A DNA stretch of 52,177 bases from Candidatus Hydrogenedentota bacterium (GTDB lineage Bacteria; Hydrogenedentota; Hydrogenedentia; Hydrogenedentales; SLHB01). The stretch is from NCBI GenBank assembly GCA_034408725.1, contig JAWXCN010000161.1, forward strand, positions 1 to 52,177, read 5' to 3'. Position 1 is the stretch's first letter. Each line of letters begins with the position of its first letter. Positions 4,188 to 8,983 of this stretch are shown here, piece by piece. The notes under the pieces are model-generated. The model was not told the DNA's origin. It ran no database searches and saw only the letters and a program-made list of their open reading frames with translations. The position numbers were made by a program, and so were the translations under genes.

Positions 4188-6542
4188 TTAACGCGATTCT
4201 ATTACGGCAATTTCCTTGACTGAATCTCCCGCGGCATTCTCAATTCCATCCAATCCCAACAGGGCGCCGATAAACGCCTCCGTCATCGGATATTTCCCCG
4301 GATACTCTACAAATTCCGCGTGCCCATCCATATACAACACGTTGGCCCCCATTTTTCCGTCCGGCCAGCTGCGCGGTCTGCCCACAATCACGGGAATTTT
4401 ACTTTGCTGTGTCGCGGCTTGCGTGGGGTCATTGATGTCTGTAATTAGAAACCGCTCAATTCCCTCTCGCAACAATCGCATTTTCTGCGCGGCCTTACCT
4501 TCGAAACCCACTTCCTGCGGCAACGGAGTTCCCTTGACAACTGTCTCGCGATAGGTCTCCACAAATTTCAGTCCTGCTGCCTCCTCTTGCGTCGCATACG
4601 GAATGTACCAATAGCTCCTATCGTCGAAATACGCGTCCGCATCATCGGTTCCGGGACGTTCCACCCATGGACTCAACAGCACTTTTGGATCGCTCAGATA
4701 TTCCGGATACACCGATTCCTGGTCCATGATGATTCGCCCCGCGCGTTCATCGATTAGGGGATACGAGCCTTCCTCGTCATTCGCATACATCTTCAACACG
4801 AGACCCAACTGCTTGAGGTTGTTCTGATCCGAAGCGATCTGTTCCCGCATAGTGCGAGCGACATCTTCGTTCGCCGATGGAACCGGTTTTCCTATGCGCG
4901 AACCAAGTGTGGGTCGCTCAACTTGCTGCGCTCCATCCTTTACTGCCGGAACGGGCTTTACTACTGGAACAGGTTTTACTACCGGAACGGCTTCGACAGT
5001 CGCGCCCGTGGAACGTGTCCCGATCTGCGCTCTAAATCCTTCATCCCTCAGCAGTTCGGGTGATGAAATCCAGATGTAGCCATCGTCGAAGGCGTAGTCC
5101 AATCCCATTGGACGCAGCAAGGCCGACAACGCCGCGCGCACGGTCACATTATTGAGTTTAATGCTGCTGACCGTACCCACGCTTCGATGGGTGGGATCTG
5201 TGACTTCGTTTTTAGACCGCACCACGCGGGCGTCAATCACGAAATTAAGTTCGGTAGAATCACTCAGGTATTGAAGCACGTCCTGAAGGTGCGTTTCCTC
5301 GAACTCCAGACTAATCGCGCTGTCAAGTTGTACAAGGGCCCATTCCGGAGTTGGTTCAGTATTTTTGGCCACGATGAATGATGCATCCGATAAAGTACTG
5401 CTTGATTCTGCTCGCGGCGCTGTTGACGGCTGGGTAATTAAATCGGTCCCCACGCTCGCATTTGTCAATCCGATACAAACCAGTATGGCGATCACCGCGA
5501 GCGCGAGCGCCGACCAGCCGTACGAGCCTTTCTTGAATAAAGCAATCATCGCGATTCTCCTTTTGAGGGCAGACTTGCCTTCGACAATTCCCACAACTCC
5601 GGGGACGGAATGAAACGCGCGTGAGCGATCCAGCAGCGCGAGGATGGTGTTACCGTAGGACTTCGCTTCATCCGTATCTGAAGCACTGAGCGCAAGCGCG
5701 TCACACGCCAGCTCGCGGTCAGACCGCATGCGATGAAACGCAAACCATAACAGCGGATTGAACCAATGCACGAGCAGCAGTAACGACGTGAGCCAATTCG
5801 CAAGGATGTCACGGCGCTTGTGGTGCGCTACTTCGTGCATGAAGACATGCCGCAATGTTGTCTGGTCCGCATCGCGCGCCAACGCGTTCGGAATCAATAT
5901 TCGAGGCCGTATCCAGCCAAACAGCGCAGGGCCGCGATCCCAATCCACCGCCACAACAGTCATCGGCGTCGCAACACCCAGCCGTTCCTTGCAATCTTCT
6001 AATACGTTCAACACCGCCGGATCGATCACCGGACGACACCGCCGCACACGCCGCAGCACCGCAATGTTGTTAACAGCCATAACGAAGCCCAGCGCGATCA
6101 CTCCCGCGATCCAAGCGACAGTCAGGCGGCCCCAAACCGTAAGCGTGCTACTCACGGAACGGTCCACATCCGCGGAACCAGCCACCAGCGCTGACGCTCC
6201 AGCAGAGATTTCGTTTGCGTCCGGCGGTGGCGGGAACTCCAGTTTATCAATTCCTGGCGCGGCCCCGACATACGACCAGCTTCCTTGAGGCAAATCTAGC
6301 TGAGTGGAGAAATTTTCTGGAAGCCGTAACAAATTAAAGACACTAATACTGCTCGAAGGGGCTACCGGCATCACCAGCCGAGCCACCACCACGAACCACA
6401 GCGCATAGCTCCAGCGCGGTGTCAGATTGCGCTTCAACGCAGCCTGCACAACCATTACTAAAACCACCAGCACCGCCGCTTGAAAAGACGTCGGTATCAC
6501 CCAACCCAACAAACCGATTGCGCTCGTCATCCAGTTGTCCAT
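4188..6542 (-). CDS. BlaR1/MecR1-like M56 metallopeptidase sensor with STN-like and DUF1559/H-X9-DG-like extracytoplasmic domains
   Basis: GPALFGWIRPRILIP, HEVAH..RRD, HWFNPLLW, DRELACD, LKRRI; then ISLEFEETHLQDVL...L.NVTVRAAL; then NNLKQLGLVLKMYAN...GANVLYMDGH. Confidence 0.9.
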   Translation of the reverse strand: MDNWMTSAIGLLGWVIPTSFQAAVLVVLVMVVQAALKRNLTPRWSYALWFVVVARLVMPVAPSSSISVFNLLRLPENFSTQLDLPQGSWSYVGAAPGIDKLEFPPPPDANEISAGASALVAGSADVDRSVSSTLTVWGRLTVAWIAGVIALGFVMAVNNIAVLRRVRRCRPVIDPAVLNVLEDCKERLGVATPMTVVAVDWDRGPALFGWIRPRILIPNALARDADQTTLRHVFMHEVAHHKRRDILANWLTSLLLLVHWFNPLLWFAFHRMRSDRELACDALALSASDTDEAKSYGNTILALLDRSRAFHSVPGVVGIVEGKSALKRRIAMIALFKKGSYGWSALALAVIAILVCIGLTNASVGTDLITQPSTAPRAESSSTLSDASFIVAKNTEPTPEWALVQLDSAISLEFEETHLQDVLQYLSDSTELNFVIDARVVRSKNEVTDPTHRSVGTVSSIKLNNVTVRAALSALLRPMGLDYAFDDGYIWISSPELLRDEGFRAQIGTRSTGATVEAVPVVKPVPVVKPVPAVKDGAQQVERPTLGSRIGKPVPSANEDVARTMREQIASDQNNLKQLGLVLKMYANDEEGSYPLIDERAGRIIMDQESVYPEYLSDPKVLLSPWVERPGTDDADAYFDDRSYWYIPYATQEEAAGLKFVETYRETVVKGTPLPQEVGFEGKAAQKMRLLREGIERFLITDINDPTQAATQQSKIPVIVGRPRSWPDGKMGANVLYMDGHAEFVEYPGKYPMTEAFIGALLGLDGIENAAGDSVKEIAVIESR

Positions 6543-6544
6543 GA

Positions 6545-6919
6545 CTAAGACCCCTTCTCGTCCAGAACACGCCGGAGTTCTTCAATCTCCTCCGCGCTCA
6601 GCTTTTCCAATTCAAGGAAATGCGACAGCATTGGTGTCAGTGCGCCCCGATACACCCGCTCCAGAAACGACCGGCTCTCCGCCCGCGCGCAATCCTCTTC
6701 CTGCACCAGAGGGTAGTAGTGGTAGATACGCCCGTTCGCCTCGTACCCCAGCGCCTTCTTTTTCACCAACCGGTTCAACAATGTCTTGATGGTTTGTGGG
6801 CTCCACGCCGTCTCCGCTTCCAAAGCCCCGACCACGTCATTCGCAGTCCGCGGTGATTTGTCCCATATCACCCGCATCACCACCCATTCCGAAACGGAGA
6901 TACCCGGTAAGTTCCGCAT
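6545..6919 (-). CDS. BlaI/MecI/CopY family repressor
   Basis: ISVSEWVVMRVIW, WSPQTIKTLLNRLVKK, LSAEEIEELRRVL; exact start uncertain (6919-6931). Confidence 0.95.
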   Translation of the reverse strand: MRNLPGISVSEWVVMRVIWDKSPRTANDVVGALEAETAWSPQTIKTLLNRLVKKKALGYEANGRIYHYYPLVQEEDCARAESRSFLERVYRGALTPMLSHFLELEKLSAEEIEELRRVLDEKGS

Positions 6920-6939
6920 TGAATGCATCATCCCTTTCT

Positions 6940-6987
6940 GATTACATCTGTAATCGCTATAATTACACATGTAATCAAAAAAGTCAA
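6940..6987 (-). promoter_or_regulatory. Two BlaI/CopY-type operator palindromes overlapping promoter
   Basis: GATTACA-TC-TGTAATC (6940-6955) and ATTACA-CA-TGTAAT (6962-6975) match TACAnnTGTA; TTGACT -35-like at 6987-6982. Confidence 0.88.
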
Positions 6988-6999
6988 TGCCCGGATTTT

Positions 7000-7128
7000 T
7001 TCACCACGAAGGCACGAAGAAATTCAAGAAACACCTCCCGTAGATGCGAGACACCCCGGAAAACTCCCGAATAAATCTGTTTCTTTTTTTTCAATTTCTT
7101 GTCTTCGTGCCCTTCGTGCCTTCGTGGT
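7000..7128. repeat. Second inverted pair of CACGAAG-type arms (7000-7030 / 7096-7128)
   Basis: TTCACCACGAAGGCACGAAGAAATTC vs CTTCGTGCCCTTCGTGCCTTCGTGGT. Confidence 0.82.
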
Positions 7129-7164
7129 AAAAAAAAACGGGGCCGCGCCTTTCGGCACGGCCCC
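7129..7164 (-). terminator. Rho-independent terminator
   Basis: Minus strand GGGGCCGTGCC-GAAA-GGCGCGGCCCC-G followed by T9. Confidence 0.9.
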
Positions 7165-7189
7165 TGGAAAAACAGTCCTGAACGCGCTC

Positions 7190-7297
7190 CTAACGCGACG
7201 GGCCTGAACGATTCTCCTGTTCGAGATTGCTCAATTTCATGACATGCATGGCATGCCCAACCCTGGCATCAGGAGACCACGTACTCGGACTACACAT
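7190..7297 (-). CDS. Possible 35-aa small ORF (MCSPSTWSPDARVGHAMHVMKLSNLEQENRSGPSR)
   Basis: ATG directly after the extended SD; no recognisable homology. Confidence 0.35.
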   Translation of the reverse strand: MCSPSTWSPDARVGHAMHVMKLSNLEQENRSGPSR

Positions 7298-7387
7298 AGG
7301 CTGGACCACCTCCTTCCCGGCGTCATCGCGCATCCCGGCCGCCCAACATTGTGCGCCTTCGTCACAACGAGCCACTTGTCGGATGAC

Positions 7388-7396
7388 ATTATACCA
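7388..7396 (-). promoter_or_regulatory. Extended -10 sigma70 promoter
   Basis: Minus strand TG-G-TATAAT, perfect consensus. Confidence 0.7.
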
Positions 7397-7414
7397 CAAG
7401 GTATGCGCACTGCC

Positions 7415-7968
7415 GATTTTAGATTTTAGATTTTGGATTTTAGATTCGTGGTCGCCGAAGCCCTCGCGAGTTGTTTCGGCTTATTCAAACCCCGCAGCGT
7501 TCGTATAGAAGCCACAATCATGGCCAAAATCTCATCTGTCTCGCGCATCAATGATTCGAGCTTCTTTTTTGGCAGAGTTTCCGAAGCCACAAACAGTTCC
7601 AGCCAGTACAGGGTCTAATCCGCTTCTTCTTCTACGATACCGAGTTTGCTTATGACATCCGCCGCACTTCTTCCCCTGCAAGCCGCACGGTAATTAGCGC
7701 CGACAGAAGTCGCGGAGCGAAGGAGCTGTCTTCCGATAGTCTGCGCAGTCATGTTTTTCGGTAACGCGTTCACAAGCCGAATGACTCTTAATCCCAGCCT
7801 CTTCGTCCGTGCCTTAAACTCCGCTTGGTTCATATTTCGAATCCAATAGGTTTAAAGGAGAGAGCAAATCCCCGATACAAAAACGACTGTTCGCACTCCA
7901 CGTTCAAAGTCTCCGCGCGTCCTTTCCCCAATCTAAAATCCAAAATCTAAAATCTAAAATCTAAAATC
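7415..7968. repeat. Perfect 32-bp inverted repeat of GATTTTA heptamers (7415-7446 / 7930-7968) enclosing second four-helix-bundle gene
   Basis: GATTTTAGATTTTAGATTTTGGATTTTAGATT vs AATCTAAAATCCAAAATCTAAAATCTAAAATC(TAAAATC); variant unit is mirrored. Confidence 0.95.
7426..7833 (-). pseudogene. Four helix bundle protein with in-frame TAG
   Basis: QLLRSATSVGANYRAACRGRS...IVEEEAD*TLYWLEL...EILAMIVASIRTL; TAG at 7617-7615 where Glu (GAG) is expected; frame continues to TAA at 7428-7426. Confidence 0.9.
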
Positions 7969-8983
7969 ATGCGATCCGCACGCACACTTTCCCAAAATGC
8001 TTCCCTGCCGCCATATACTCCACCGCGTTGTAAATATCCCGCATCGGGTATGCCTTGTCGATAACCGGCTTCAACTGGTGCAACGTAATTGCCCGGTTCA
8101 TCGCCTCAAACGCCTCTCTATGCCCCACAATCACGCCCTGCATCCGCACATCCTGCATCAGCACCGGCGTGAGGTTCAGCGGCGCCTCGGGACCGGAGAG
8201 CACGCCGATCAAACTGATCGTTCCTCCCATCTTCACGCTGCGCATCGATTGCGTCAGCGTGCCCGATCCGCCGACTTCAATGACGTGGTCCACGCCTTCG
8301 CCGCCGGTCAATTCGCGCACCTGCTTCGACCACTGCGGATTCTTTGCGTAGTTGATGCCGTGGGCCGCGCCGAGTTCCTTCACCCGCTCGAGTTTTTCGT
8401 CGCTGCTCGATGTCGCAATCACGTTCGCGCCCATCATCCGCGCAAATTGCAATGCGAATATCGAAACGCCGCCCGTGCCGAGCACCAGCACGGTGTCCCC
8501 CGGCCGCGTGTGACCATGCCGCGCAAGCGCGCTCCACGCGGTAAGTGCCGCGCACGGCAACGTCGCCGCTTCTTCATCATTCAAATGATCGGGGACCAGC
8601 ACCACGCCGTCTTCGTGCAACACGATGTATTCAGTCAGCATGCCATCCAGCGGCCCACCGAGCGTTGTGTTTTGCAGTTTTGTGCGCGTCGGGGGTCCGG
8701 CGATCCAGCCCTGCGCAAAACATCCCGCAACGCGATCACCCGTTTTCACGCGCGTCACCCCATCACCGATTTCCACTACCTCGCCCGCGCCGTCCGAGCA
8801 CGGCACCAGCGGCAACGGTTGCTTCGGATTATAGAATCCCTGAATTGTCAGCAAGTCGCGGTAATTCAGCGACGCAGCCTTCACCTTCACCAACACCTGC
8901 CCCGGCCCCGGCGACCTCTCCGGCCTGTCCACCAACGCCAAATGCTCAAACCCAAACGCGTCCCGAATCTCAATCGCTTTCAT
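7967..8983 (-). CDS. NAD(P)-dependent alcohol dehydrogenase-like oxidoreductase (MDR family)
   Basis: ASLNYRD, PCSDGAGEV, TLPCAALTAW, GTGGVS, GKHFGKV; start MKAIEI at 8983. Confidence 0.93.
   Translation of the reverse strand: MKAIEIRDAFGFEHLALVDRPERSPGPGQVLVKVKAASLNYRDLLTIQGFYNPKQPLPLVPCSDGAGEVVEIGDGVTRVKTGDRVAGCFAQGWIAGPPTRTKLQNTTLGGPLDGMLTEYIVLHEDGVVLVPDHLNDEEAATLPCAALTAWSALARHGHTRPGDTVLVLGTGGVSIFALQFARMMGANVIATSSSDEKLERVKELGAAHGINYAKNPQWSKQVRELTGGEGVDHVIEVGGSGTLTQSMRSVKMGGTISLIGVLSGPEAPLNLTPVLMQDVRMQGVIVGHREAFEAMNRAITLHQLKPVIDKAYPMRDIYNAVEYMAAGKHFGKVCVRIA

Follow-up and report, generated by a model that had tools for sequence, protein, structure and literature searches.

A family of candidate rre-like small mRNAs in Hydrogenedentota with a ribosome-binding site complementary to the 16S rRNA tail

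The RNA unit and its distribution

The window analyzed here is a stretch of 52,177 nucleotides (nt) from a Candidatus Hydrogenedentota bacterium (assembly GCA_034408725.1, contig JAWXCN010000161.1), and the element under study is a predicted small RNA gene on its minus strand, in which an extended Shine-Dalgarno (SD) sequence complementary to the 3' end of 16S ribosomal RNA (rRNA) precedes a short open reading frame (ORF). An earlier note on this DNA had proposed a standalone transcript at this place. In a scan of positions 6400-8100, the minus strand contains a single strong promoter-like site and a single strong terminator-like site, and both lie where the note had put them (Table 1). The motif that it had singled out, AAGGAGGTGGTCCAGCC, is unique in the window even when two mismatches are allowed (0 of 100 shuffled sequences matched), the two AGGAG..CGTTCAGG repeats are present in the RNA unit, and the 35-codon ORF begins at ATG 7297 as described.

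The signals that delimit the unit are conserved among its homologs. A -10-like TANNNT element immediately precedes the RNA in 60 of the 67 distinct homologs, compared with 3 of 36 control windows, and a terminator-like hairpin followed by a T-run occurs downstream in 60 of the 66 homologs with at least 200 nt of downstream sequence, at a median of 159 nt beyond the covariance-modelled part. The flanking ORFs belong to differing clusters and have differing orientations outside close relatives. Thus, the signals are conserved and the gene neighbours are not, in agreement with the independence that the note had assumed, and judging by these signals the RNA is most probably a standalone, separately transcribed gene. 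A look through the sequencing runs that contain this DNA gave nine DNA entries and no RNA run.

The earlier note had also suggested a covariance-model search of related genomes. The model (R1), built on the shared 5' 98 nt, detects the RNA in 71 of the 135 Candidatus Hydrogenedentota genomes searched (49 of the 86 high-quality ones), with one copy per genome in nearly all carriers. By family, carriers number 41/53 (f1), 11/14 (f3), 4/4 (f8), 4/15 (f5), and 3/6 (f10). Family f11 has 2/23, both weak model hits, and f13 has none by the model among 10 genomes; in these two families every 16-mer occurrence coincides with the end of a 16S gene, and the RNA unit was not found there. A blastn search against 61 relatives matched 16 genomes and located the RNA in all four genomes of the window's genus and in other genera of its family. 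An exact signature (13-mer, 4-5 nt, ATG, 4 nt, GTCC) occurs in 48 stretches of a species-genome collection, the titles of which name Hydrogenedentota (31), a taxon beginning with Nitrospir- (10), Planctomycetota (3), or others (4), and additionally in 32 metagenome stretches. The labels of three Nitrospir- records and one Rhodothermaeota record are read as binning or naming noise.

Several matches were set aside. Four blastn matches (L017, L018, L020, and L021) were dropped as short motif-less stretches; they comprise the only matches of genomes G026, G008, and G035, of 21-30 nt, and a second match of this kind in G038. The family analyses excluded L073 and L078, which look like ordinary protein genes with strong SD sequences; L037, L083, L094, and six Planctomycetota-type units, which have a different body; and the truncated L024, L054, L089, and L099. 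The analysis of 67 homologs also omitted the weak model hits L159-L161 (24-27 bits). The homolog L006 (G003:C561) was left out of the alignments; it is cut at the contig end by what we take to be a transposase-library adapter, an assembly artefact in that metagenome-assembled genome.

At curated thresholds, Rfam recognizes only two tRNAs in the window, and in its permissive mode there are sub-threshold matches to CC2171 and BjrC68, the latter covering the terminator region. A housekeeping RNA was considered and rejected: no Rfam family of this kind matches in the window, and by eye the fold is unlike 6S RNA, signal recognition particle RNA, transfer-messenger RNA, or RNase P RNA, families for which the rest of the genome was not searched.

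Complementarity to the 16S rRNA tail

The single assembled 16S gene of the window genome ends GCGGCUGGAUCACCUCCUUUCU, and the partner of the RNA on the 30S subunit would be a 16S tail ending GGAUCACCUCCUUUCU. The comparison with the host's own 16S end, which the earlier note had called for, confirms pairing over all of its 17 nt with one G·U pair, and two additional G·U pairs would lengthen the run to 20 nt (7318-7299). In the window copy, Watson-Crick runs of 9 and 7 nt flank one G·U. For a genome-wide comparison, pairing was extended along the 16S tail, with G·U allowed, from all GGAGG-containing sites of the 5.17-Mb assembly. The number of sites falls from 3,290 at 5 nt to two at 14 nt, and just two more exceed this length: the RNA unit, at 20 nt, and the strand opposite the 16S gene, at 22 nt. 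Ordinary SD use in this genome is seen as a GGAG/GAGG peak about 12 nt before crudely called starts, which reaches 69 per 1,000 genes per position over a background near 5.

The conserved part of the complement, 17 nt where an SD sequence usually pairs over 4-8, differs slightly from the motif first noticed. Over the 67 distinct homologs, the consensus is the 17-nt sequence GGAAAGGAGGUGRUCYR, represented in the window by positions 7318-7302, 3 nt upstream of that motif; GCC at 7301-7299, which would pair deeper in helix 45, is not conserved. At the position that follows the 17-mer, where pairing needs G, the homologs have T50/G12/C5, and therefore the conserved pairing ends there. In E. coli numbering, the conserved duplex would take in all of the single-stranded tail plus the two final pairs of helix 45 (G1529 and U1528). 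The complementarity described in the note is thus real, with its conserved part shifted, and the proposed entry into helix 45 is conserved over two nucleotides, not five. Most family members have one to three G·U pairs, and the homologs with GGUGAUCC (14/67) are Watson-Crick at 16 of 17 pairs.

Variation within the 17-mer follows the wobble rules. Seven positions vary among the 67 homologs, every one of them opposite U or G of the 16S rRNA. The first position is G/A in 48/17 sequences (plus one T and one C), three positions are A/G in 62/5, 66/1, and 66/1, one is G/A in 52/14 (with an insertion in row L132), and two further positions are C/U in 56/11 and A/G in 50/17. Pairing is kept by the variants throughout, except for the L132 insertion and the two first-position rows, and five of the variable positions show pair-keeping transitions alone. 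The eight positions opposite 16S C or A, at which intolerance of transitions is expected because of these partners, are invariant (67/67). Thus, 7 of 9 wobble-tolerant positions vary, compared with 0 of 8 intolerant ones (Fisher exact p ~0.002 by our own arithmetic, a significance inflated by the relatedness of the sequences). Of 39 assembled 16S copies, taken from 35 genomes, 38 agree over the last 22 nt, and this constant tail spans carriers of GGUGAUCC and carriers of GGUGGUCC. Since the variation is restricted to wobble-tolerant sites while the 16S tail is constant, the pattern indicates that the 17-mer is under selection for pairing with 16S rRNA.

A relic of a 16S gene on the plus strand was rejected as a source of the complementarity, the similarity stopping at the 17-20 nt.

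Reading frame, RNA fold, and surroundings

Of the 67 distinct homologs, 66 start with AUG and one (L133) with GUG, and the start codon follows the 17-mer by 3-5 nt. The GUCC after it, which was part of the initial search pattern, is present in 64/67 and is not invariant. In complete copies of the Hydrogenedentota type, the frame is open for 23-42 codons, compared with medians of 10 and 4 in the other two frames, a comparison that is not independent, as conserved bases close those frames early. Insertions and deletions in the ORF between close relatives (three events) are of 3 nt, 3 nt, and a compensated +1/-1, and those in the 5' domain are of 1 nt (93 cases), 2 nt (12), and 4 nt (1). No Pfam match was obtained for the 35-residue peptide, again as the note had it; the peptides cannot be aligned between subfamilies, and several of the closest homolog pairs have non-synonymous differences only. 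Reading of the frame seems to matter, and the peptide product does not.

The predicted fold of the 258-nt RNA (-109.4 kcal/mol) is more stable than that of shuffled sequences (-95.2 ± 4.7 kcal/mol; z = -3.0), and 1 of 200 shuffles was as good. The structured 5' domain, which abuts the SD sequence, is present in all 68 strong covariance-model hits. Helices 1-4 are paired in 89-92% of cases, with both sides changed in 9 of 15 pairs; helix 5 is 87.5% paired, and in helix 6 both sides are changed in 7 of 9 pairs. For 12 sequences of the window's subfamily, RNAalifold predicts the 5' domain (P1-P3), an unpaired SD sequence and AUG, the P4/P5 hairpin, and the terminator. This nested fold pairs 88.1% of alignment cells (80.8 ± 0.9% in shuffles) and has 25 pairs changed on both sides (12.4 in shuffles), and none of 500 shuffles reaches any of five measures. 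Slid partners give 34-45% pairing, a control that is flattered by derivation of the structure from the same alignment. On the question raised in the earlier note, whether RNA structure or the peptide is conserved, the RNA fold shows strong covariation, and the peptide is unconserved, with a ratio of non-synonymous to synonymous differences (pN/pS) of about 0.68.

A second helix could mask the 3' part of the SD sequence together with the spacer. It and P5 are mutually exclusive, because its 3' strand (7255-7263) overlaps the 5' strand of P5. The partner segment resembles the 16S tail (UGGAC or UGGAUC). In most lineages the masking helix reaches over the AUG, whereas in the window copy it is limited to the spacer and the 3' part of the 17-mer. 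The best partner lies at a constant offset, about 25 nt after the AUG in the window group and 55-65 nt after it in subfamily B. Among 29 sequences of the B type, 92.0% of cells are paired, compared with 24-45% for slid partners, 3 of 500 shuffles reach the covariation score, and RNAalifold predicts the helix. In 29 non-B sequences, the pairing is 85.2%, compared with 29-43% for slid partners and 83.9% in shuffles. A C to U change in the 17-mer is accompanied by G to A in the partner in six sequences. In the window's subfamily, the nucleotides shared with the better supported P5 make this helix an alternative state and not part of a single fold. Predicted accessibility in 58 sequences is highest at the 5' AAA of the 17-mer (0.60-0.82 unpaired) and lowest at UCY (0.14-0.25).

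In L083, a metagenome variant with a different body, CCACCUCC precedes GAAAGGAGGUGGUCC by about 25 nt and could sequester the whole SD sequence in a hairpin.

Table 1. Features of the RNA unit in the window
Feature	Positions	Strand	Details
-35-like hexamer TCGGCA	7411..7416	minus	17-nt spacer; 10/12 together with the -10
Extended -10 TGGTATAAT (TATAAT preceded by TG)	7388..7396	minus	found in the promoter scan
Predicted promoter-to-terminator RNA unit	about 7381-7130	minus	~250 nt
Structured 5' domain	7319..7373	minus	outer stem P1/P2 around a conserved internal loop (ACGAAG / GGGAUG) and hairpin P3; abuts the SD sequence
Extended SD sequence GGGAAGGAGGUGGUCCA	7302..7318	minus	17 nt; complements 16S 3' end UGGAUCACCUCCUUUCU with three G·U pairs
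Motif AAGGAGGTGGTCCAGCC of the earlier note	7299..7315	minus	last 3 nt pair in the window genome, not conserved
Alternative helix, 5' strand GUCCAGCCU	7298..7306	minus	would mask the 3' part of the SD sequence and the spacer; 9 bp with 7263-7255, -15.7 kcal/mol
Start codon AUG	7295..7297	minus	4 nt after the 17-mer
35-codon ORF and TAG stop (MCSPSTWSPDARVGHAMHVMKLSNLEQENRSGPSR)	7190..7297; TAG 7192-7190	minus	begins at ATG 7297
Long irregular hairpin P4/P5	7173..7292	minus	P4 7292-7287/7178-7173; P5 ~7275-7255/7210-7187; encloses most of the ORF
Alternative helix, 3' strand GGGUUGGGC	7255..7263	minus	overlaps the 5' strand of P5
Intrinsic terminator	7130..7164	minus	11-bp stem 7164-7139, 10 G-C pairs, GAAA loop, then G and nine T

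The surroundings of the unit contain protein genes and repeats. Upstream on the minus strand, the gene at 7429-7833 belongs to PF05635, a family of proteins from 23S rRNA intervening sequences (33.7 bits; cut-off, 33.8); it has an in-frame TAG after codon 72, beyond which the frame continues, and is either a pseudogene or an assembly error. Runs of a AATCTAAAATC-type repeat flank it at 7417-7450 and about 7830-7850, and the 18-mer AATCTAAAATCTAAAATC, with 11 occurrences in the genome, looks like a dispersed short repeat. Downstream, between the terminator and the promoter of a blaI-like gene, positions 6997-7134 hold a long inverted repeat, ACCACGAAGGCACGAAG ... CTTCGTGCCTTCGTGGT, similar to repetitive extragenic palindromes, the 15-mer core of which occurs 13 times in the genome. 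The region 4188-6987 (minus strand) holds the genes of a BlaI-type repressor (PF03965) and of a BlaR1/M56 protein of 784 residues that includes an STN domain, and the promoter-like site at 6987-6959 overlaps a TACA..TGTA palindrome that is a likely operator. On the plus strand, GGAAGTGATCCAGCC at 41058-41072 matches the 16S-complement pattern with one mismatch.

Relation to rre mRNAs and possible function

The closest known counterparts are the rre genes. The rreB gene of Bradyrhizobium gives an mRNA of 165 nt that complements the 16S 3' end perfectly over 17 nt and in which a predicted helix holds the GUG start codon and the SD region save its five 5'-most nucleotides; its co-sedimentation with 30S subunits requires the 5' extension of the SD sequence, it is weakly translated owing to the long SD sequence and the GUG start, and its decay is start-codon-dependent (PMC5711450). 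The same study reports rre genes in Caulobacterales and calls the function of these genes elusive (Hahn et al., PMC5711450). A literature search found rre genes described in that paper alone, with no follow-up and none outside Alphaproteobacteria.

The Hydrogenedentota RNA shares with rreB and rreR (i) a short standalone unit with its own predicted promoter and terminator, (ii) complementarity of 16-17 nt to the 16S 3' end ahead of a tiny ORF, here counting G·U pairs, and (iii) a gene context that varies across orders and peptides that are dissimilar between clades. The predicted rre seed arrangement, with the 5'-most SD nucleotides single-stranded and the rest held together with the start region in a helix, may recur here: the predicted accessibility profile fits it, but covariation of the masking helix is weak, and in subfamily A this helix competes with P5. 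There are differences as well. The Hydrogenedentota RNA belongs to another phylum and has no detectable sequence or structure homology to rreB or rreR; it is about 250 nt long, compared with 165 nt for rreB, and a conserved domain of about 55 nt precedes its SD sequence, whereas that of rreB lies 8 nt from the 5' end. Binding to 30S, weak translation, and start-codon-dependent decay have been shown for rreB only.

A further relative of the design is found in Rfam. The consensus of RF01867, the Caulobacter small RNA CC2171, starts with GAAAGGAGGUGAUCCA-GUG, followed by a long-range helix around hairpins and a terminator, and we infer that CC2171 is the Caulobacterales rre gene, although Rfam files it as a small RNA and not as an mRNA. 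A passage of a preprint states that its expression was confirmed by Northern blot in Methylorubrum (bioRxiv 10.1101/2022.01.24.477521). With this family's model the window reaches 27.7 bits, the gathering score being 75, and the alignment covers only the SD sequence and the terminator, and none of 20 other family members matches the RF01867 model at E ≤0.1. At the level of sequence, the Hydrogenedentota RNA is an rre-like design in another phylum, with no homology to rreB/rreR or to CC2171.

Two other small RNA types came to light alongside this family. Contigs labelled Planctomycetota and related metagenome contigs (L035, L053, L064, L080, L082, and L092; also L037) carry a different small terminated RNA, with GAAAGGAGGUGGUCY, a spacer of 4-5 nt, AUG, and GUAGUCC. 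Its frame of 10-11 codons encodes a conserved peptide (MCSPYQRWLA / MCSPQIQRWLT), and no masking helix was detected in it by duplex energies (z ≥0). A second rre-like type occurs in one genus (L167, G134:C548; L172, G035:C84), with GAAAGGAGGUGGUCCG, GUG 6 nt later, a frame of 27-28 codons, and a terminator; its 5' region is different and was missed by model R1, and genome G035 carries both types.

Structured ribosome-binding sites are also the subject of the standby model of de Smit and van Duin, with tisB as an example. As in standby mRNAs, a single-stranded landing site here lies beside a masked start region; unlike in them, the landing site is the SD sequence itself, which continues into the masked part as an uninterrupted 17-nt complement of 16S rRNA.

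Taken together, we consider it probable that this structured RNA of about 250 nt is a standalone small mRNA of the rre kind, and that its ribosome-binding site pairs with the entire free 16S tail and about 2 nt of helix 45. Conserved signals suggest that it would be transcribed from its own sigma-70-type promoter and end at its own terminator, and covariation shows its folding into the 5' domain and the long hairpin. The exposed 5' part of the 17-mer, GGAAAGGAGG, may then nucleate pairing with the anti-SD sequence of a free 30S subunit. Zipping in the 3' direction through UGRUCYR would displace the masking helix, a step suggested by its conserved complementarity even though covariation is weak, and would free the spacer, the 17-mer's 3' part and the AUG, the last being masked in most lineages though not in the window copy. 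The outcome would be a duplex of 15-17 bp that holds the RNA on the 30S subunit and is followed, 3-5 nt downstream, by the AUG. Ribosomes presumably enter the short frame, given that both start codon and open frame are maintained. Translation would probably be inefficient, by analogy with the rreB experiments, as there is an over-long SD helix to break and P4/P5 to unwind. The selected property is probably ribosome engagement itself and not the peptide, and most plausibly it would control the RNA's own conformation or turnover. Among the roles listed in the earlier note, an mRNA with an extreme ribosome clamp gives the best fit, given a start codon and an open frame kept in all strong homologs and the rreB precedent (PMC5711450).

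Some observations weigh against this interpretation. Binding to 30S is argued from sequence statistics and analogy. The GGAGG core lies at -15/-16 from the AUG, compared with a genome optimum of about -12, and in the window copy three positions of the 17-mer are G·U. Because the training homologs of the model came from motif searches, some ascertainment bias remains: motif invariance in the initial motif-found sets proves nothing, and the covariance-model search is less biased, 24 of its 71 hits departing from the initial sequence pattern. The masking helix has no significant covariation in the non-B sequences, the window's own subfamily included (of 500 shuffles, 28 attain its covariation score and 61 its percentage paired), its duplex energies are only slightly better than those of shuffles (median z -1.1; 17/69 below -2), so that the case for it rests on its constant position and on the pairing comparisons, and in the window subfamily it competes with the much better supported P5. 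The peptide is almost without purifying selection (218/234/278 differences by codon position; pooled pN/pS 0.68), the frame-preserving indels amount to three events only, and an open frame of such length is not very improbable by chance at 57% G+C. Compared with rre mRNAs, the AUG is outside the complementarity, 3-5 nt after it, whereas the first base of the rre GUG is the last paired nucleotide; the ORF has 23-42 codons and a peptide unconserved within the family, whereas rre ORFs have 14-18 codons and are conserved within a clade; and a 5' domain is added that rreB and rreR do not have.

Another scenario, which we regard as unlikely, is a non-coding riboregulator that binds 30S subunits as a decoy, sponge, hibernation, or maturation factor. 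Here, the SD sequence and AUG would serve only to place the RNA in the mRNA channel and the P site, the frame would not be productively translated, and the RNA would act by occupying or remodelling the subunit. A fold better conserved than the peptide, a 17-mer that pairs along all of the free tail and 2 nt into helix 45, and a stable hairpin P4 that begins 6 nt past the AUG and would hinder accommodation are all compatible with such an RNA. It accounts poorly for a frame kept open for 23-42 codons with frame-preserving indels in 3/3 events among close relatives, and a single copy with an ordinary promoter could hardly titrate ribosomes. Overproduction of rreB by 20-fold left growth unaffected, and its authors discount simple ribosome recruitment (PMC5711450). 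For the sponge, hibernation, or maturation role raised in the earlier note we found nothing in favour.

Improbable, too, is an ordinary small-protein gene with a functional 35-residue peptide, in which the long SD sequence would ensure strong initiation on a structured mRNA. The AUG, the open frame, and the frame-preserving indels would be natural for such a gene, as would the common N-terminal M-x-S-P and the AGUCC kept in 64/67 homologs. However, the AGUCC that encodes S-P doubles as the 5' strand of helix P4, and the peptide shows little constraint: pN/pS is as given above, several of the closest pairs differ non-synonymously only, the length ranges over 23-42 residues, and there is neither an alignment between subfamilies nor a Pfam match. 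In rreB, moreover, over-long SD sequences reduced translation (PMC5711450).

A cis-acting leader or attenuator, in which ribosomes translating the short frame would decide whether transcription passes the terminator and enters the blaI/blaR1-like operon, is very improbable. The repressor gene (6970-6545) and the BlaR1/M56 gene (6542-4188) are on the same strand, and a leader-peptide-like frame does precede a terminator; nevertheless, the downstream genes vary between genomes and are often on the opposite strand, and the blaI-like gene has its own promoter-like site at the palindrome. The geometry of a leader is also unconserved, because the distance from the stop codon to the terminator stem is 25 nt in the window subfamily and about 60 nt in subfamily B.

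Titration of CsrA/RsmA through GGA motifs, the alternative offered in the earlier note, is likewise very improbable: the genome has a csrA gene (90.7 bits) and the RNA has four GGA-containing motifs, but only 3-4 GGA motifs, mostly within helices and not in hairpin loops, would be available, and such a role would not constrain 17 contiguous positions or give a wobble-only pattern that tracks the 16S tail. Equally remote is a type I toxin mRNA, that is, a structured, translationally masked message for a small toxic peptide, for which a small standalone structured mRNA with a start region maskable by a long-range helix would be suitable, whereas the peptides are polar, rich in Arg, Cys, and Pro, variable, and without a hydrophobic segment, the distribution is phylum-wide and vertical-looking with one copy per genome, and the region scan gave no antisense promoter, no specific search for antisense RNA having been made.

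A speculative and rather doubtful extension is that the RNA senses the pool of free 30S subunits. In such a sensor, GGAAAGGAGG would serve as a toehold, strand displacement of the tail-like segment (UGGAC / UGGAUC) would switch the RNA between the masking helix and P5, and the 5' domain would be an effector or ligand-binding module. Together with the Planctomycetota variant, mini-mRNAs that clamp the 16S tail might then be a class of ribosome-coupled regulators that extends across bacteria and is either ancient or has been invented several times.

In summary, mini-mRNAs that pair with the whole 16S tail were known, as far as our literature search extends, from Alphaproteobacteria only and with an elusive function. 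The occurrence of this design, with unrelated sequence, in an uncultured phylum, along with a variant in Planctomycetota, speaks for a general solution and not for the peculiarity of one lineage. The wobble-only pattern provides comparative evidence for selection for 16S pairing on all 17 positions, beyond the SD core, which the earlier study could not show, its sequences being near-identical (PMC5711450). The natural variation of the family, with its G·U and A-U pairs, two-state fold, and added 5' domain, should be useful for studying the effects of over-long SD sequences on 30S binding, start-codon placement, and promoter-distal clearance.

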